Below the pieces are notes generated by a model, which was not told the origin of the DNA, did no database searches, and saw only the letters and a list, made by a program, of their open reading frames with translations. Source: Candidatus Tectimicrobiota bacterium (GTDB lineage Bacteria; JACPUC01). From it: a stretch of 64,000 nt of DNA. The first letter of the stretch is position 1. Each line of letters opens with the position of its first letter. The translations under genes were made by a program, and so were the position numbers. The stretch is from positions 1-64,000 of the forward strand of contig JACPUC010000019.1 in assembly GCA_016192455.1 (NCBI GenBank). The letters run 5' to 3'. Below are positions 47,854 through 53,063 of the stretch, piece after piece.

Positions 47854-48429
47854 TCAAGTCTCTTCGAGGAGCTGCTTGATGAAACGATTGATGCCGGGAG
47901 AGGTCCACTCCCGCGGGCCCACGGCGACGGCCACGAGGCGACCGCGCTTGTCGATCAGGAAGCTCTCCGGATGGCCGCTGATGCCGTAGTCTTGCGCCAC
48001 CGCGCTGCGCGTGTCGAGGAGGCTGCGGAAGGTCCAGCCGCGGCGCTGCATCTGCCGCGTCACCATCCCCTCAACCTCACCGACATTGACGGCGAGCACC
48101 ACGAACCGCGGATCATCTTGAAACGTTTCCATCAGCTTTTGAATTGAAGGAGACTCCTTCAAGCATGACTGTCACCAGGTGGTCCGAAAGGTGAGGAAGA
48201 CCACCTTGCCGAGGAAGCTCTGCAGGTCCACGCGGACGCCTCTGGTGTCCTGCAGCGAGAAGGTCGGCGCCGGGGAGCGCGGCTCATACATCTTCATGAA
48301 CACCGCGTAGCCTTCGGCGTTGCGCCGCAGGAGCGCTTCACGCTCGACCACCTTGCGCGCCAGCAGAACCAGGAAGATCAGGATCAACCCCCCCATGACC
48401 CAGACGCCGTAGCCCCGGAAGACGCGCAC
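47854..48429 (-). CDS. TlpA/ResA-like thioredoxin, putative selenoprotein (UxxC; TGA at 48172-48174)
   Basis: ORFs 48172-48588 and 47854-48162 are in one frame. Read-through gives APTFSL...GKVVFLTFRTTW-U-QSC-LKESP...VLAVN...YGISGHPESFLIDKRG...GPREW, a complete TlpA fold. Confidence 0.88.
48144..48162 (-). promoter_or_regulatory. Candidate bacterial SECIS hairpin (TlpA-like gene)
   Basis: UGA-N9-UUGAAGGA-GUC-UCCUUCAA: perfect 8-bp stem, 17 nt between UGA and a loop that begins with G. Confidence 0.65.
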
Positions 48430-48445
48430 CGCAGCTTCACCCGTC

Positions 48446-48940
48446 TTAGTAATCAAGGTGGTGCAACTCCTCTTGTAAACGTTGGCGGTACATGGCCAGG
48501 TGGGCCTCCTGCAGCTCCGTCGTGGAGGCCTTGGGGGACGCATCGGGGCTCTCCCTGCGACGCTTGTTCGACCACAGGAAGAGCACACTGCTGAGCAGGA
48601 ACCCGGCCCCCACCAGGACCGCGAACGGGGTCACCCAGGCGGTGAGATCGAAGCCCCGCTTGGGGGGCGCCGCCAGGATCTTGGCGCCGTACTGGTCGAC
48701 AAAGTAGGCGATGATCTGTTCCTTCGTCTGACCGGCGGCAAGTTTCTCCGTGATGAGCGCCTTGGCCGGCACCGCCCACCCCTGCATCTCGCAGATAGCG
48801 AGAACCTTGTTGCAGCCGCACTGGCAGATGAGGTCGGCGGCCACGTCCTGCATAGTCACCCCTGCGCTCGCCGCATGCCCTGCCCCATGGAGGAGCAGGA
48901 ACGCGACCAAGAGGATGCCGAGCAGCGTGACGGTTCTCAT
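48446..48940 (-). CDS. ccmH: CcmH/NrfF-like cytochrome c maturation protein
   Basis: Signal peptide, LICQCGC, YFVDQYG..ILAAPP..GF..AWVTP, TM helix. Confidence 0.85.
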   Translation of the reverse strand: MRTVTLLGILLVAFLLLHGAGHAASAGVTMQDVAADLICQCGCNKVLAICEMQGWAVPAKALITEKLAAGQTKEQIIAYFVDQYGAKILAAPPKRGFDLTAWVTPFAVLVGAGFLLSSVLFLWSNKRRRESPDASPKASTTELQEAHLAMYRQRLQEELHHLDY

Positions 48941-49512
48941 GGGCGCGACTCCTCTGCTGGGGCTGCGGCGGTGTTCCGAGCGAGCGCGGCGCCGCAAGCG
49001 GAGCAGAGCGTTTCACTCCTTGGCGCCAGGCGCCCGCAGCTCCAGCACGAAATTCGACATGGCGCGCCGCACTGCGTGCAGAAAAAGTTTCCGGCCCGCA
49101 GGAGATGGCCGCAGGAGCGGCAGCGGTCGGCCGGCGCGGCGAGCGACTCCATCTGCGCACCCGCCTCTGCCGAGAAGGCCGGGACGCCCGCCCCTCTCCG
49201 CTCTTCCCCTCGCCGGCGGCGTCGATCCCCCTTGAACTCCCGCGGTCGGGCATCCAGCTCCTGGAGGATCGCAATGGCTGCCTCGGATTGCGCCGCGTGC
49301 AGCTCCGCGAAGTCTTCCGCCGAGAGCTTGCCGGTGAGGTGATCGAGCTCCAGATCCTTCAGGGCCAGCAGGGCCGCCTCCTTGCGCTCCCACAGCTCAT
49401 CGGCGGCGCCCCGCCGGGAGCTCTCCTTGGCGCCCCGGAACCAGCGCGAGAAGGGGTAGCTCACCACGCCGGCCGCAACGATGATGATGGCAAGCTCAAG
49501 CAACACGATCAT
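48937..49512 (-). CDS. Membrane-anchored double zinc-ribbon protein (CcmI N-terminal-like)
   Basis: TM helix, LKDLELD..TGKLS.EDF, four CxxC pairs. Overlaps ccmF and ccmH. Confidence 0.8.
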   Translation of the reverse strand: MIVLLELAIIIVAAGVVSYPFSRWFRGAKESSRRGAADELWERKEAALLALKDLELDHLTGKLSAEDFAELHAAQSEAAIAILQELDARPREFKGDRRRRRGEERRGAGVPAFSAEAGAQMESLAAPADRCRSCGHLLRAGNFFCTQCGAPCRISCWSCGRLAPRSETLCSACGAALARNTAAAPAEESRP

Positions 49513-51581
49513 CAGGCGCCCTCCTCGGAAGCGTTGGGGAAGCCGTAGGCGCGCGAGCTTCGCAGCGCCGCGGCAGGGCTGGCGAGCGCCGGCGCAGCCG
49601 CGTCCCGCGCCGGCTGCCGACCCTGCGACGGGGCGCGCGCGCCACGCAGCTCCGGCACCGGCAAACCGGTGATGAGGGTGCCGAGGATCCAACCCAGGCC
49701 ACCCAGCCAGAGCCAGGAGATGAGGGGGTTGATGACCGCTTTCACGACGATGCGGTCGCGCTCCATCTCAGCCAGGATGACGTAGAGGTCCTCCTTCAAG
49801 GTTGAGCGCACCGCCACCTCGGTGGTGCTTTGCTCTTGCCGGAAGTGGTACTCCTTGCGGGGTTTCAGCGTCCCGAGCGAGGTCCCCCCGCGCCAGACGC
49901 TCAGCGTCACCTCCAGGACCTCCTTCCCCGGCTCGCGCCAGAGGTTGACGGTGTCAAGCTGCAGGCGGTACTCCCGCACGCTCAGGGACTCGCCCCGCAG
50001 CAGCCCAGCTTGGTGCTCCGTCTGGAAGGCGCTGCCGGTGATCCCCACGACCATCATGAGGACGCCGAGGTGGATGACGTAGCCGCCATAGCGCCGGCGG
50101 TTGCGCCCGAACAGCCCGATGAGCGCCTGCGCCCAGCCCGCCCCCTTCATCTGCTGGCGAGCCCGTGTGCCGCGGTAGAACTCGATGATGATCGAGGCGC
50201 CCACGAACGCCGCAAGGCCGAAGCTTATCACCACAAAGGGGTCGCGCAGCCCGCCCAGCACCATGCCGAGCAGCGCCAGCCCGCCCAGCAGCGCCGGCGG
50301 CACGAGGTTGCGCCGCAGGTTGCGGGCCGTCGCCTTGCGCCAGGCGATGAGCGGGCAGATGCCGGTGAGCAGCAGCATGGCCAGGAAGATCGGCGCCATC
50401 ACCTGGTTGAAGAACGGCGGCCCCACCGTCAGCTTCACGCCGCGCACCGCCTCGGAGATGAGGGGGAAGATCGTCCCCCACAGCACCGCGAAAGCGCCGC
50501 CGACGAGGAGCAGGTTGTTGAACAGGAAACTGCTCTCCCTCGAGATGAACGAATCGAGCTGGTGGGCGCTCTTCAGCAGCGGCAGCCGCCACACCAGGAG
50601 GCTCAACGAGCCAAACAGCACAACGCCCATGAAGCCCAGGAGGAGCGGTCCAACCGAGGCCTGCGCGAAACTGTGCACCGAAGTAATGACGCCGCTGCGG
50701 GTGAGGAAGGTGCCGAACAGCGTCAGCGAGAAGGTCGCCATGATGAGCGCCATGTTCCAGACTTTCAGCATCCCCTTCTTCTCCTGGATCATCACCGAGT
50801 GGAGGAAGGCGGTGCCGGTGAGCCAGGGCATGAAGGAGGCGTTCTCCACCGGGTCCCACATCCAGAAGCCACCCCAGCCCAACTCGTTGTAAGCCCACCA
50901 CGAGCCAAAGAGGTTGCCTATGCCCAGGAAGAACCAGGCGAAGAGTGTCCAGTTGCGCGTGCGGCTCACCCACTCATTCCCCACCTTCCCCGCCAGCAGG
51001 GCGCCGATGGCAAAGGCGAACGGAACGGTGAAGCCGATGTATCCCAGGTACAGCGTCGGCGGATGGAAGAACATGCCGGGGTTCTGCAGCAAGGGGTTCA
51101 AGCCGCGGCCATCAGCCGGCACTTGCGCCGCAAGCTCGAAGGGGTTGCTGCTGAAGTTCGTCAACGCCAGGAAGAAGGTCAGCACCGTGAGCAGCACCGG
51201 CAGCACGTAGGGGAAGATGTCGCTCGGTCGCCGCTCGTTCTGCACGATCACCACCACGACCATGAGCGACAGCACCCACACCCAGAAGAGGAGGGACCCT
51301 GCGAGACCGCCGTAGAACGCCGACAACGTGTAGACCAGCGACAGATCGCGGCTGGTGTAGCTGGCGACATACTGCAGGGAGAAGTCCCGGGTCACCAGGG
51401 CATAGATGAGCGCCGCCGAGGCCACGCTGAGCAGGACGCCGAGCATCACGCCGGCGCCAAGGGCGCTGGCGGTGGAAGCCCCGTGCCGGCGTTTGGCGCC
51501 GAGGACCGACACCCCCAAGCCATAGAGTGCCAGCAGGAACGCGAAGAAGAGAGCAAAGCGGCCAAGGTCGATCATGCGCAC
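49512..51581 (-). CDS. ccmF: Heme lyase CcmF/NrfE family
   Basis: GSLLFW, GLNPLLQ..HPP.LYLGY, WAYNELGWGGFWMWDPVENAS, TRSG..SVHSF, HLGV. Confidence 0.96.
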   Translation of the reverse strand: MRMIDLGRFALFFAFLLALYGLGVSVLGAKRRHGASTASALGAGVMLGVLLSVASAALIYALVTRDFSLQYVASYTSRDLSLVYTLSAFYGGLAGSLLFWVWVLSLMVVVVIVQNERRPSDIFPYVLPVLLTVLTFFLALTNFSSNPFELAAQVPADGRGLNPLLQNPGMFFHPPTLYLGYIGFTVPFAFAIGALLAGKVGNEWVSRTRNWTLFAWFFLGIGNLFGSWWAYNELGWGGFWMWDPVENASFMPWLTGTAFLHSVMIQEKKGMLKVWNMALIMATFSLTLFGTFLTRSGVITSVHSFAQASVGPLLLGFMGVVLFGSLSLLVWRLPLLKSAHQLDSFISRESSFLFNNLLLVGGAFAVLWGTIFPLISEAVRGVKLTVGPPFFNQVMAPIFLAMLLLTGICPLIAWRKATARNLRRNLVPPALLGGLALLGMVLGGLRDPFVVISFGLAAFVGASIIIEFYRGTRARQQMKGAGWAQALIGLFGRNRRRYGGYVIHLGVLMMVVGITGSAFQTEHQAGLLRGESLSVREYRLQLDTVNLWREPGKEVLEVTLSVWRGGTSLGTLKPRKEYHFRQEQSTTEVAVRSTLKEDLYVILAEMERDRIVVKAVINPLISWLWLGGLGWILGTLITGLPVPELRGARAPSQGRQPARDAAAPALASPAAALRSSRAYGFPNASEEGA

Positions 51582-51817: not shown

Positions 51818-52096
51818 TTACATGGAGGCGAGCGTGAGGCGAGGAGGTCGGAAGAAGGAGGTGTGGAGGAGGCGCACCCGGGGTGGATGGGCAAGCCACC
51901 GCAACCGGCTGGCGAACAGCGGCCCCAGCACCAGGGGTAGCGCCGCTACGGCAATGCAGCACCCTGCTGGCGCGGGCGTGGACATATGCCCGCTCTCTTG
52001 TAACGTCAGGAGACAGATGTTGAGCAACACCAGGAAGACGCAGAGCGCCAGGATGAGACCCCGCTGCTGGTGGTGGATACGGGCGAGTCTACGCAT
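51818..52096 (-). CDS. Putative DUF2946-like leader peptide (TM helix, His/Cys-Cys, C-terminal FFRPPR)
   Basis: Short ORF upstream of ccmF with LILALCVFLVLLNICLL, GHM..GCC and FFRPPR near the stop. Start uncertain (52096 or 52132). Confidence 0.55.
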   Translation of the reverse strand: MRRLARIHHQQRGLILALCVFLVLLNICLLTLQESGHMSTPAPAGCCIAVAALPLVLGPLFASRLRWLAHPPRVRLLHTSFFRPPRLTLASM

Positions 52097-52204
52097 GCTG
52101 GATCGGCTATCCTGAACTGGAAAGGTGTTCATGTCCTTTAAGATGCGCCGCTGGTCGCAGCGCCTCCTTGGTTCCAGCAACGTCCTCAATGCCGCGTCAC
52201 CGTC

Positions 52205-52735
52205 TCAGGGCACGATGAAGTTCCCCTTGATGCGCAAGCGCGTCTCCGGTTGGCGCGGATCGTTCGATTTGATCACCGCTTCGAAGAGGTGCGGTCCTTC
52301 CATCCCCTTGTGCATCATGACGGAGGTGGTCACGGTTCCAGAGAAGCCGGGCTGCAGGGTGACCTCACGGATCACCATCTCCGGCGGTCAGCACCCCTCG
52401 AGCACTTTCATTTGGATCTTCTGATCGCGCCCGAACTCATTGGTGATGCGCAGCTCCGCATCGCCGACGTTGCGGTACACGAACGCATAGGGAGCCAGAC
52501 GATCAATGTACACCTTGCCGAAATCGACGAACTGGGTGTCAAACTCGATCTTCGGCCCCAACGCCACCGCCGGCCCGCCGGGCGCCGCGGCAAGGGGCGC
52601 GAGCTGCGCCGCGGCAGCCGCCCCCGCCGACCAGCTCAGGGCCACGACAGCGGACAGCAGGAGCAGGCCGCACACCGCCACGACGATGCGCGGGAAGCGT
52701 TCCAAGACTCTAGCTCGCGCGCGGCAATCTCTCAT
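52205..52735 (-). CDS. Exported DUF1573-like Ig-fold protein, putative selenoprotein (CU; TGA at 52388-52390)
   Basis: Signal peptide, GPKIEFD...DFG....F.YRNVGDAEL.I, then EGC-TGA-PP and an open in-frame continuation (LQPG, MMHKGMEGPH.F...SNDP..P...L.IKG) to a stop at 52205-52207. Confidence 0.8.
52346..52385 (-). promoter_or_regulatory. Candidate bacterial SECIS hairpin (DUF1573-like gene)
   Basis: UGA-N11-GGUGAUC-CGUGA-GGUCACC upper stem, G second in the loop, 18 nt between UGA and loop; GCCGG/CCGGC lower stem. Confidence 0.6.
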
Positions 52736-53063
52736 CTCCCCTCCCTGCTATGCACCGCGTCTGATTTGTGGGAGCGTTCCTCGCCTCTCAAGGGTGGCAC
52801 GCCATCTTTCATGGCTAACTTCATGCCTGCGTGACCTTAAAACCTTGACCGACATCAAAATCTCGAGGAGGAGCGCATCCTACGGCGGCAGGGCTTCCGC
52901 TGGCGCAGAGAGCTAATACCATCCTATAAGTTCCAACACCTCATTCTGACAGGGGGCCTTCTCTCCTCCGCGCACTCCGTAGGAGCGGATCGTAGGGGCG
53001 GGGCTTGCCCCGCCCGGCGCTTACGTCTGCGAGGGAACCTTGTCCCCTCGCGCACCCCGCCTT

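Follow-up and report, generated by a model that had tools for sequence, protein, structure and literature searches.

DUF1573 selenoproteins are known as the OS_HP2 family (PF07610, NF041425), which carries the motif UxC/UGC according to the accessible parts of PMC1976440 and PMC2398784 and Table 1 of PMC13188914. In the same Table 1, a CU motif is given for bacterial selenoproteins that have been linked to metals, namely SaoC, SaoL, HgcA, MbdU, and the CopZ-like 2Fe-2S form 2, and the accessible part of that catalogue proposes the Sec of the adjacent Cys-Sec as a metal ligand. Another exported Cys-rich lipoprotein with Sec forms is CYCXC/PCYCGC (OS_HP4, PF13798, NF041379), for which the available text of PMC13068155 gives no published function.

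The stretch analyzed in this study, hereafter the window, comprises 64,000 nucleotides of a Candidatus Tectimicrobiota genome (GCA_016192455.1, contig JACPUC010000019.1, positions 1 to 64,000), and its minus strand carries a gene for a DUF1573-like protein with an in-frame TGA (Table 1). Similar to OS_HP2, the window protein is exported and belongs to the same fold superfamily (Ig-like, NVGD...SNDP frame), its Sec is part of the Cys motif in the same loop, and Cys forms are common. However, the Sec of OS_HP2 replaces the first Cys of C-G-C, as in the KPG-U-GCT of locus L018, whereas the window protein keeps the first Cys, has its Sec one column later at the canonical Gly, has a Pro in place of the second Cys (G-C-U-P-P), and contains an additional conserved Met/His loop. 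It scored 21.4 bits against NF041425, for which the cut-off is 100, and with its Sec one column late it falls outside OS_HP2. The C-G-C-T motif that follows the third strand in canonical DUF1573 is likewise absent, with the first Cys alone aligning. A C-U form of the DUF1573-like fold was found neither in NCBIfam nor among the 119 prokaryotic selenoprotein families and subfamilies in the accessible part of the 2026 catalogue (PMC13188914).

The CU-motif proteins linked to metals differ from the window protein in fold and family, and none of them matched it in NCBIfam. CYCXC/PCYCGC is also unrelated in fold and motif, and would be a likely partner rather than a relative. The vicinal Cys-Sec after a Gly resembles the G-C-U-G centre of mammalian thioredoxin reductase; however, the latter sits in the flexible C-terminal tail of a flavoenzyme, whereas the window motif is internal, forms part of a loop in an Ig domain, and is followed by Pro-Pro. 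As a small exported beta-sandwich with soft Met/His/Cys ligands, the window protein further resembles PCuAC (DUF461), CopC, CusF, and CopI, whose genes adjoin those for copper ATPases, cupredoxins, and copper-responsive regulators and which are proposed to protect or supply the assembly of periplasmic metalloproteins. To our knowledge, none of these four contains selenocysteine. No Pfam or NCBIfam match of the window protein to any of them was obtained at E values up to 1, and we would liken it to them in the way it may work, not as a member. CopI is described as a periplasmic Cu(I) protein in the accessible part of bioRxiv 10.64898/2026.10.17.759849.

Table 1. Features of the selenoprotein gene and its neighbours in the window
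Feature	Position	Strand	Basis
Selenoprotein CDS, complete	52208..52735	-	176 codons, translation with TGA=U
True stop of the selenoprotein gene, second TGA	52207..52205	-	translation
UGA codon 116, predicted Sec; motif G114-C115-U116-P117-P118	52388..52390	-	Sec/Cys column
N-terminal export signal or membrane anchor (predicted), residues 1-45	52601..52735	-	basic N-terminus, then hydrophobic stretch
Ig-like (DUF1573/HYDIN-type) beta-sandwich, residues 61-172	52220..52555	-	PF22544, structure model
Met/His loop M140-M141-H142-K-G-M145-E-G-P-H149	52289..52318	-	subfamily alignments
SECIS-type upper hairpin GGUGAuCC-GUGA-GGUCACC	52358..52376	-	fold, covariation; starts 11 nt past the UGA
Small hydrophobic protein, next ORF downstream, start uncertain	51818..52189	-	ORF list; no Pfam family over cut-off
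CcmF (cytochrome c haem lyase subunit), downstream	49512..51581	-	CcmF_C E 7.5e-61, Cytochrom_C_asm E 4.2e-40
CcmH-like protein	48446..48997	-	PF03918 E 1e-17
Second selenoprotein of the cluster, ResA/TlpA/CcmG-like thiol-disulfide oxidoreductase, TTW-U-QSC	47854..48588	-	in-frame TGA 48174..48172, translation

Reading frame and fold of the joined protein

The gene starts with an ATG at 52735 on the minus strand. The ORF 52388..52735 ends in ...VLEGC and is followed by a TGA at 52390..52388, beyond which 60 further codons, PPEMVIREVTLQPGFSGTVTTSVMMHKGMEGPHLFEAVIKSNDPRQPETRLRIKGNFIVP, continue in the same frame to the TGA at 52207..52205. An open frame past a TGA is by itself unremarkable, since at least 60 open codons follow 378 of the 1741 TGAs (21.7%) in the six frames of the window, a DNA of 66.8% G+C. 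What sets the joined frame above chance is that it completes a domain, that it has homologues, and that the composition of its tail is coding-like. The sequence-only reading, made from the letters and an ORF list, had reported host-like codon usage in these 60 codons; the GC3 was 0.85 after the TGA vs 0.82 upstream.

The same reading had proposed that an exported DUF1573-like domain is completed past the TGA. In the Pfam scan, the joined protein matched PF22544 over its full length (1-100/100; 31.5 bits, cut-off 25.5), and the truncated ORF matched positions 1-38 only. The match to DUF1573 (PF07610) ran from end to end (1-97 of 98) at 21.9 bits, below the gathering cut-off of 26.1. The protein is a single Ig-like beta-sandwich, and it is related to DUF1573, as had been proposed. 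Its structure model showed a helix at residues 4-43 and a pLDDT above 90 over the Ig-like domain, and the top Foldseek matches of the model were 2qsv and the HYDIN PapD-like domain, i.e., generic Ig-like/PapD-like folds. A PDB sequence search with the family profile gave 2qsv, which is without the Cys motif, as the best match, and returned no solved structure of the Cys-Sec site. For the natural Cys homologue P0083, the ESM Atlas returned generic DUF1573/Ig-like clusters only, with scores of 0.83 or lower. Export is supported by the predicted N-terminal signal or anchor and by lipoprotein-type signals in many homologues (e.g., LLSAC, LTAC, LPAC).

The Sec/Cys column and the hairpin after the UGA

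If the TGA encodes Sec, homologues should carry either TGA or Cys at this column, and the Cys-only ones had been expected to read GCCPP. Across 38 homologous loci, the column held TGA in 32 and a Cys codon (GCCPP) in 6, and GCCPP was present in all 17 small single-domain database proteins fetched from the best 150 of a representative search. Loci from scans of public genomes and metagenomes had TGA in 8 of 13 cases and TGC/TGT in 5. In the phylum of a Dehalococcoidales MAG, 25 matches were obtained from 19 of 301 sampled genomes, 24 with TGA and 1 with Cys. Two near-identical orthologues, L069 and L070, differ solely by Cys vs Sec. A Trp at the column in homologue P0006 is suspected to be a TGA that the gene caller translated under table 4.

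Homologues that genuinely end at the GC were not seen, and the frame downstream of the column is conserved, including the motifs LQPG, MxGxHxF, and SNDP. The gene call in the window and those of its two nearest database relatives are stumps of 115-123 residues, and these two relatives (88% and 78% identity) were both cut at ...VLEGC. Furthermore, contigs of approximately 93%-alike relatives, from two other studies, bridged positions 52388-52390 and were unchanged there, vs 35 and 39 differences elsewhere. A contig from a run labelled metatranscriptomic ('probably DNA') covers 52401-52562.

These proteins constitute a distinct and widespread subfamily, GC[U/C]P...M-x3-M-x-G-x-H-x-F...SNDP, in which Sec and Cys interchange. 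Its invariant or near-invariant residues are C115, U/C116, P117, H149, F151, and the Met of G-M. H149, F151, and the Pro after the Cys/Sec pair were almost invariant in one alignment (A2), and the equivalent Met, Gly, His, and Phe were invariant or almost so in another with 20 Cys forms (A5). As to the taxonomic setting, the 60 relatives that were found all have just the domain in common, and the genome is alone in its phylum; the phylum of a second ccm-linked genome has two members.

The genome contains selA, selB, and selD, all above the curated cut-offs, and a tRNA-Sec with the anticodon tca (contig C8), as the selenoprotein reading demands. The selD gene carries its own in-frame TGA, and a CYCXC Sec form, AG-U-GTC, is encoded on contig C19. 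The best NCBIfam match of the second selenoprotein of the cluster was ResA, at 86.8 bits under a cut-off of 170. A hairpin starts 10 nt past the UGA in this ResA-like gene, and the hairpins of selD and the ResA-like gene lie 10-11 nt after the UGA.

A two-tier hairpin had been noted after the UGA, and its two tiers fared differently. In 9 sequences, 95.8% of the cells of the upper tier were paired, with double changes in 4 of 8 pairs. When 31 Sec forms were compared, 91.9% of the cells were paired vs 71.7% in shuffles (0 of 500 as high) and 25-64.5% in slid controls, double changes occurred in 6 of 8 pairs, and the covariation score was 0.645 vs 0.270 in shuffles (0 of 500 as high). The columns that covary fall on third codon positions, i.e., synonymous sites. 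The spacing was 11 nt after the UGA in 31 of 31 Sec forms, which had at least five different downstream peptides, and the apical loop contains G-U. An 11-nt spacing and a G/U in the apical loop are also known from the SECIS element of Escherichia coli fdhF. The upper tier is thus conserved and covarying; the lower tier (80.6% of cells paired, a double change in 1 of 4 pairs) is weak as a conserved element. Since the hairpin columns pair in the Cys forms too (35 of 40 cells), the conserved peptide accounts for part of the hairpin, or else the Cys forms arose recently. An Rfam scan of 52150-52800 at E values up to 10 found no SECIS family, with one chance sRNA match. Thermodynamic stability was dropped as evidence for the hairpin, as 110 of 200 shuffles folded equally well at this G+C (z = 0.19).

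The TGA could also be an assembly error, or a true stop that leaves a 115-residue product or marks a gene that is split or decaying, with no selenoprotein made. Gene callers do end at the TGA in P0003, P0004, and P0005 and the hairpin is thermodynamically unexceptional; however, 32 diverged homologues keep the TGA with intact and conserved downstream frames, the column alternates with Cys codons only, the truncated product would be one third of an Ig domain, independent contigs contain the TGA, and the genome has the full Sec machinery, and a pseudogene, true stop, or assembly error was rejected as very improbable. We therefore estimate a probability of roughly 0.93 that 52735..52208 is one genuine exported selenoprotein, with Sec predicted at UGA116 beside Cys115. 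The hairpin 11 nt past UGA116 would recruit SelB and Sec-tRNA(Sec), by which Sec would be inserted next to Cys115.

Neighbouring genes

In the window, the selenoprotein gene heads a cytochrome c maturation/Rieske-cytochrome b cluster, a place from which the sequence-only reading had suggested that selenium supply might influence the expression of the genes that follow, here the ccm genes. In one large clade of homologues, it is the last gene of the operon, not the first. The small ORF that follows in the window (51818..52132) did not resemble the small ORFs found at the corresponding position in locus L021. No copper genes were found beside the selenoprotein gene in this genome, in which the HMA, CopA, and CYCXC genes are on other contigs.

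The neighbours of homologues in other genomes were inspected in a first set of 13 loci, within about 4-6 kb, and a second set of 20 loci. Copper-type neighbours were present at 5 of the 13 loci. P1B copper ATPases beside the homologue exceeded the TIGR01511 cut-off at L021 and L022 and scored lower on Cd/Zn models; the P1B ATPase of L038, whose ORF is cut by the contig end, scored 374.8 vs the cut-off of 397. The neighbours at L035 are CopZ/HMA and a CsoR-type repressor, and that at L044 is a YHS protein. In the second set, where the counts are inflated by kinship since a single clade of close relatives with conserved synteny contributes 11 of the 20 loci, genes for HMA, P-type ATPase, cupredoxin/COX2-like, or multicopper-oxidase proteins occurred at 13 loci, and a PCYCGC protein, the most frequent neighbour, at 11. 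PCYCGC is also fused to the GC[U/C]P domain in both orders, one way in L036, L037, and P0044 and the other way in L102. The ccm genes adjoin the selenoprotein gene itself in the window and its homologues at L021 and at 4 of the 20 loci (L086, L089, L090, and L091), and L091 has the copper set and the ccm set together.

The partners that recur are either Cys-rich (PCYCGC) or membrane proteins of the NapH-like Fer4_5 type. Complex prediction for two natural Cys-form proteins from one operon gave a score of 0.34, compared to 0.00 for the best of three controls. In a benchmark, 116 of 157 solved complexes and 2 of 215 mismatched pairs attained 0.34, and scores of 0.60 or under were those of 18 of the 157 solved complexes and both mismatches. 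At least 95% of the contacts agreed between runs, and the pLDDT of the partner was at least 86. The prediction weakly suggests that the domain and its partner form a complex in this natural pair.

Copper binding and its alternatives

Because of the conserved Cys/Sec/Met/His set and the copper neighbours (ATPase, HMA, CsoR-type repressor, cupredoxins, and CYCXC lipoprotein), we infer that the Cys-Sec pair and the conserved His and Met in the loop that follows bind Cu(I) outside the cytoplasmic membrane, a view to which we give slightly better than even odds. The gene structure, Sec/Cys column, hairpin, fold class, and neighbourhoods are observed, whereas the proposed ligands, metal, and physiological role are putative. 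Handling of Cu(I) had earlier been suggested from the Met/His patch, and it stays conditional, now with the copper-homeostasis neighbours of homologues in other genomes on its side. The alternation of strands in the model would place the GCUPP loop (114-118) and the M/H loop (140-146) at the same end of the sandwich. In that case, the domain would be a chaperone that scavenges or relays copper, probably in concert with the CYCXC (PCYCGC) lipoprotein. In the window genome, it may keep Cu(I) off the thiols/selenols of apocytochromes, CcmH, and the ResA-like selenoprotein. Cytochrome c assembly is a main periplasmic copper target according to the accessible parts of PMC4600104 and bioRxiv 10.64898/2026.10.17.759849.

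The main rival is a metal-free redox protein, in which the vicinal Cys-Sec would cycle between selenolate/thiolate and an eight-membered selenenylsulfide ring and serve the thiol chemistry of cytochrome c maturation (e.g., as a reductant or isomerase of apocytochrome CXXCH or CcmH). The GCUG end of mammalian thioredoxin reductase undergoes such Cys-Sec selenenylsulfide cycling. Moreover, CcmF, CcmH, and a ResA/TlpA-like U-x-x-C selenoprotein are encoded in the cluster that this gene opens, ccm genes stand beside the five homologues named above, and the Cys-rich PCYCGC or NapH-like Fer4_5 partners could pass electrons. With no copper gene adjoining in the window genome, the local ccm and thiol oxidoreductase genes fit this role equally, and the bacterial selenoproteins in the accessible part of the catalogue are mostly redox proteins (PMC13188914). 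Nevertheless, a redox role leaves the conserved His and Met loop unexplained, and it does not account for the repeated occurrence of copper ATPase, HMA, CsoR-type, cupredoxin, and multicopper-oxidase genes nearby; the fold is of the Ig type rather than the thioredoxin type, and the cluster already has a dedicated ResA-like reductase and CcmH. We consider this role unlikely, though worth keeping in view.

The protein could instead bind a thiophilic metal or metalloid other than copper (Hg, Ag, Cd, Zn, or As). Neither HMA domains nor P1B ATPases are strictly confined to copper, the HMA neighbours give scores with MerP and mercuric-reductase models as well, and CU motifs recur in the predicted metal/organometal selenoproteins SaoC, SaoL, HgcA, and MbdU (PMC13188914, Table 1). 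However, the ATPases of L021 and L022 favour the copper model over the Cd/Zn models, the cupredoxin/COX2-like and multicopper-oxidase neighbours are copper proteins, and the homologue neighbourhoods examined contained neither mer nor ars genes, which makes a metal other than copper improbable. Haem handling is more doubtful still. In its favour, the Cys/Sec-Pro dipeptide resembles a haem-regulatory CP motif, the Pro behind the Cys/Sec pair hardly varies, the second axial ligand could come from His or Met, and the ccm context recurs in the window and five other loci. However, most homologues lack ccm genes next to them, searches with Pfam, NCBIfam, and Foldseek showed no resemblance to a haem chaperone, and the copper context is left unexplained.

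Returning to Cu(I) binding, a broader and more tentative proposal is that the GC[U/C]PP proteins may be widespread unrecognised extracytoplasmic Cu(I) chaperones with Sec as a direct copper ligand, which, together with the CYCXC lipoprotein (often itself a selenoprotein), might form a selenium-dependent copper relay that loads cupredoxin/CuA-type proteins and shields cytochrome c maturation.

The GC[U/C]PP group is an uncatalogued and widespread branch of a known protein family. The stump calls and the TGA in 24 of 25 homologues of the sampled phylum indicate that a fairly common protein family is systematically mis-annotated, as gene callers halve the gene at the TGA. The Sec position C-U is new for the DUF1573-like fold, being unlisted among the 119 families and subfamilies so far as the accessible part of PMC13188914 extends. 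If the copper reading is true, the protein would be a clean case of Sec as a soft-metal ligand in an exported chaperone, would offer a first clue to the function of two so far uncharacterised domains (DUF1573-like and PCYCGC), and would connect copper stress and selenium with cytochrome c maturation in a concrete way. If the selenium-dependent relay is true, it would couple the building of the respiratory chain to selenium supply, both in Chloroflexota and in several rare phyla of groundwater.

Read-through gene at the head of a cytochrome c maturation cluster

An ATG at 52735 on the minus strand opens a 115-codon ORF, which ends in ...KVLEGC before a TGA at 52390..52388. Past this TGA, the frame stays open as PPEMVIREVTLQPGFSGTVTTSVMMHKGMEGPHLFEAVIKSNDPRQPETRLRIKGNFIVP until the next TGA, at 52207..52205. 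Such a long open tail is not unusual for the window DNA, where at least 60 open codons followed 378 of the 1741 TGAs in the six frames. The GC3 of the tail was 0.85, compared to 0.82 for the upstream part, 0.91 for CcmF, and 0.82 for the amidase, and its composition was coding-like. The decisive point for a read-through gene was the completion of the domain by the joined protein. In the Pfam scan, the match of the truncated ORF to the Ig-like profile PF22544 was limited to positions 1-38, whereas the joined protein covered positions 1-100 of 100 (31.5 bits; cut-off, 25.5), as the sequence-only reading had proposed for the frame beyond the TGA. For DUF1573, the joined protein covered positions 1-97 of 98, with 21.9 bits, slightly below the cut-off of 26.1. 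We consider this a genuine selenoprotein gene mis-called by annotation, with a probability of about 0.93.

The stretch was present in four runs of one groundwater study, possibly its source. An assembly error at the TGA was excluded, since positions 52388-52390 were unchanged in approximately 93%-alike contigs from two further studies, which carried 35 and 39 substitutions plus a 24-nt insertion. In groundwater run X2, several other contigs matched only 52346..52399 (about 50 nt, containing the TGA and the hairpin) with approximately 80% likeness and a depth of up to 74.8; they are probably other family members of the same community.

The gene was claimed to be the first of its cluster, and it does head a long co-directional run; its upstream neighbour is the divergent amidase. 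HMA, CopA, and PCYCGC genes were absent from its vicinity and were located on other contigs of the genome.

Features of the selenoprotein gene and of the run that it heads
Feature	Position	Strand	Remark
Selenoprotein gene	52735..52208	minus	176 codons; in-frame TGA at codon 116
Hairpin	52376..52358	minus	GGUGAuCC-GUGA-GGUCACC
Small hydrophobic ORF		minus	next after the selenoprotein gene
CcmF	49512..51581	minus	
Zinc-ribbon protein		minus	between CcmF and CcmH
CcmH	48446..48997	minus	
ResA/TlpA/CcmG-like thiol-disulfide oxidoreductase	about 47854..48588	minus	in-frame TGA 48174..48172, TTW-U-QSC
NfeD-like protein		minus	after the ResA/TlpA-like gene; named from translation, not family search
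Rieske protein		minus	after the NfeD-like gene
Cytochrome b-like protein		minus	after the Rieske gene
Multihaem cytochrome c		minus	689 residues
Another cytochrome c		minus	end of the listed run

On contig C23, the assembly (4.46 Mb, 66.8% G+C) carries adjacent selB and selA genes (366 and 596 bits, respectively, both above the cut-off); it also has a tRNA-Sec with the anticodon tca and a selD with an in-frame TGA of its own. The ResA/TlpA/CcmG-like gene is a second mis-called selenoprotein of the same cluster; its best NCBIfam match was ResA, with 86.8 bits against a cut-off of 170, and the U-x-x-C thiol:disulfide interchange selenoprotein family is already known. Elsewhere in the genome, a Sec form of the PCYCGC family (RHGAG-U-GTC, G000:C19:11393-11635, minus; L106) is unlinked to the window's gene, and an HMA-domain match of 24.6 bits with two in-frame TGAs (L059, G000:C27:118022-118201, minus) may be a UxxU metal-binding selenoprotein of the NF041115 type. 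The genome is the sole one of its phylum among the species representatives covered, its assembly is 88% complete, and all 60 of its listed 'relatives' have just the domain in common with it.

Conserved hairpin downstream of the UGA

A hairpin after the UGA had been claimed and was found in the window, with a stem that is conserved and covarying over 31 Sec forms. Every Sec form has a stem of 7-8 bp that begins 11 nt past the UGA, with G-U in its apical loop. The E. coli fdhF element follows an 11-nt spacing rule and has G/U in its loop. In the window's own genome, hairpins also begin 11 nt past the TGA of selD and 10 nt past that of the ResA-like gene. Rfam held no model matching the hairpin.

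In a nine-sequence alignment, the upper helix was paired in 95.8% of cells, with both-side changes in four of eight pairs. Over the 31 Sec forms, 91.9% of cells were paired compared with 71.7% in shuffles, none of the 500 shuffles being as high; double changes occurred in six of eight pairs, and the covariation score was 0.645 versus 0.270 for shuffles. When the partner was slid by 1-3 columns as a control, pairing was 25-64.5%. Covariation falls in columns 15/33, 18/30, and 21/27, all of them third codon positions. Moreover, the hairpin is kept while the encoded peptides differ among clades (PVVGSTT, LTIGSMV, PAVSSTV, and VFVGTTT; EMVIREV in the window). The stability of the window hairpin was not above that of shuffles (z = 0.19), and its columns also pair in 35 of 40 cells in five Cys forms. 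Hairpin-bound SelB would bring Sec-tRNA to UGA116, and translation would end at the second TGA, which lacks an element of this kind.

Homologues and relation to known DUF1573 selenoproteins

A word-indexed protein search returned the window's 115-residue stump, two relatives with 88% and 78% identity, both likewise ending at ...VLEGC, and a 137-residue protein, P0006, reading TLEGCWPP. At the DNA level, 13 subfamily loci came from six-frame searches and from scanning public contigs, eight with TGA at the column (L021, L022, L032, L033, L034, L037, L039, and L041) and five with TGC or TGT (L035, L036, L038, L040, and L044); L021 is titled a Nitrospinota MAG and L022 a Dehalococcoidales MAG. In the phylum of the latter, 19 of 301 sampled genomes held 25 matches (E <=1e-15), 24 with exactly one TGA, at the Sec column, and one with Cys. 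The near-identical orthologues L069 and L070 carry Cys and Sec, respectively. The Dehalococcoidales MAG itself (G061) has two family paralogues (L060 and L062), both with TGA. Overall, with L022/L060 taken as one locus, 32 loci had TGA at the column and six had a Cys codon; these 38 DNA-read loci showed no third residue, and the sole departure among the homologues was the apparent W in the protein sequence of P0006. The Cys forms read GCCPP, as predicted.

A 15-member profile searched against 1.84 billion representatives matched 16,792 proteins at E <=0.001, for the most part very large Ig proteins with many repeats. Among the best 150, the 17 short single-stretch proteins and three multi-domain ones were fetched, and all 17 short ones had GCCPP, M-x3-M-x-G-x-H-x-F, and SNDP. 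In the multi-domain canonical DUF1573 proteins P0099 and P0150, single repeats carry vicinal CC variants (SCC..., KCCG...), so C-x-C may have turned into C-C on several occasions.

DUF1573 is among the predicted selenoprotein families as OS_HP2, from Olavius symbionts, with the motif UxC/UGC (PMC1976440, PMC2398784, PMC9312934, PMC13188914); one genome held a form of this type (L018, KPG-U-GCT). In the canonical alignment, Cys115 of the window protein falls on the first Cys of C-G-C-T, where OS_HP2 has its Sec; U116 falls on Gly, and the window's Pro on the second canonical Cys. The OS_HP2 model NF041425 gave 21.4 bits (cut-off, 100), and no other NCBIfam model matched. The 2026 catalogue (PMC13188914) treats a different Sec position as a separate subfamily and has no C-U form of this kind for this fold. 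Nor did the open-access full texts searched on DUF1573 and PCYCGC/CYCXC/PF13798, main text only, describe a C-U DUF1573 form. The product places Sec at a position (C-U) new to a fold in which selenoproteins were already known. The subfamily is frequent in one phylum at the least, and two rare lineages also have it.

Copper-linked neighbourhoods and proposed function

In a first set of 13 loci (1-8.5 kb each), a copper-type P1B ATPase lay near the gene in L021, L022, and L038; the first two were above the TIGR01511 cut-off, and L038, with an ORF truncated at the end of the contig, scored 374.8 against 397. L035 had two HMA domains and a CsoR-type repressor as neighbours, L044 a YHS protein, and L021 also CcmF, CcmH, and two Rieske genes. 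PCYCGC is fused to the GC[U/C]PP Ig domain in L036:1697-2683, L037:41-934, and P0044, and in the opposite order in L102:5537-6411 (minus); L037 and L102 are Sec forms.

The second set took 20 of the 25 matches, which came from 16 genomes in a single phylum, each with flanks of 6 kb. Eleven loci contained PCYCGC (in L102 as a reverse-order fusion), and cupredoxin/COX2-like proteins likewise occurred in 11; HMA and/or P-type ATPase was found in nine, NapH-like Fer4_5 membrane proteins in eight, and multicopper oxidase in three; at least one copper-linked gene was present in 13. These loci are not independent, since eleven belong to one clade with a conserved operon; counted by lineage, copper-linked neighbours occurred in about eight diverged lineages. 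The operon of this clade, which lies in the Dehalococcoidales MAG's phylum (L092-L103, e.g., L095:2285-6330), starts with a gene for a small HMA protein, continues with the PCYCGC lipoprotein, another small protein of cupredoxin/COX2-like type, the NapH-like Fer4_5 membrane protein, and a fusion of COX2-like and cytochrome c parts, and ends with the GC[U/C]PP protein, often near an OmpR-type two-component system, multicopper oxidase, and P-type ATPase. Many homologues are lipoproteins, and some adjoin lgt. The putative link of the gene to copper handling and the CYCXC (PCYCGC) protein is well supported.

Ccm genes lay in four of the 20 loci (L086, L089, L090, and L091). The order in L089 (GC[U/C]PP gene, zinc-ribbon, CcmE, CcmF, CcmH, double-zinc-ribbon, CcmA) is near to the window's arrangement, and L091 combines P-type ATPase, Lgt, Rieske, the GC[U/C]PP gene, Fer4_5, PCYCGC, zinc-ribbon, two CcmE, and CcmF. 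The main alternative to copper binding is that a selenenylsulfide without metal would serve the redox chemistry of cytochrome c maturation; it appears unlikely beside the copper-linked neighbours.

The AlphaFold2 model, built with a 15-row alignment (mean pLDDT, 84.9; residues 61-176 above 90), has an N-terminal helix at 4-43 followed by an eight-stranded sandwich. The best Foldseek matches were 2qsv (a Porphyromonas protein of unknown function), HYDIN PapD-like domains, and VesB/VesC Ig domains. Strand alternation would place the G-C-U-P-P loop (114-118) and the M-H-K-G-M-E-G loop (140-146) at one pole, and NVGDA and SNDP at the opposite one. Invariant or nearly so, and specific to the subfamily, are E/G-C-[U/C]-P, the Met of G-M, Gly, His149, and Phe151; one clade (L036, L037, P0044, and P0048) has His-His instead of the Met residues. 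Selenolates are completely ionised at neutral pH, and as Cu(I) ligands they are better than thiolates. Cu(I) would be bound at a soft-ligand site of Cys115, Sec116, His149, and Met145, with Met140/141 and His142, and we give this predicted binding by the window's protein slightly better than even odds. That such a site would serve a thiophilic metal other than copper seems improbable, and haem handling via the Cys/Sec-Pro motif still more so.

A complex of a natural Cys-form protein with the PCYCGC lipoprotein of the same operon was predicted alongside three controls. The score was 0.34, versus 0.00 for the best control, with contacts agreeing by at least 95% between runs and a partner pLDDT of at least 86. 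Of 157 solved complexes, 116 score at least this high, as do two of 215 mismatched pairs, while scores of 0.60 or below belong to only 18 of the 157 and to both mismatches. The prediction weakly suggests that the two proteins may pair.

In the Cu(I)-binding reading, the protein, exported via its N-terminal signal or anchor, would buffer or relay Cu(I), probably to or from the CYCXC lipoprotein. Selenium supply could possibly modulate the downstream ccm genes in the window, a putative effect that is not general, because the gene is the last of the operon in the largest clade. In cupredoxin operons, the role would be copper-protein loading or copper resistance; at the head of a ccm operon, the protein would keep Cu(I) from reduced CXXCH, CcmH, and the ResA-like selenol.
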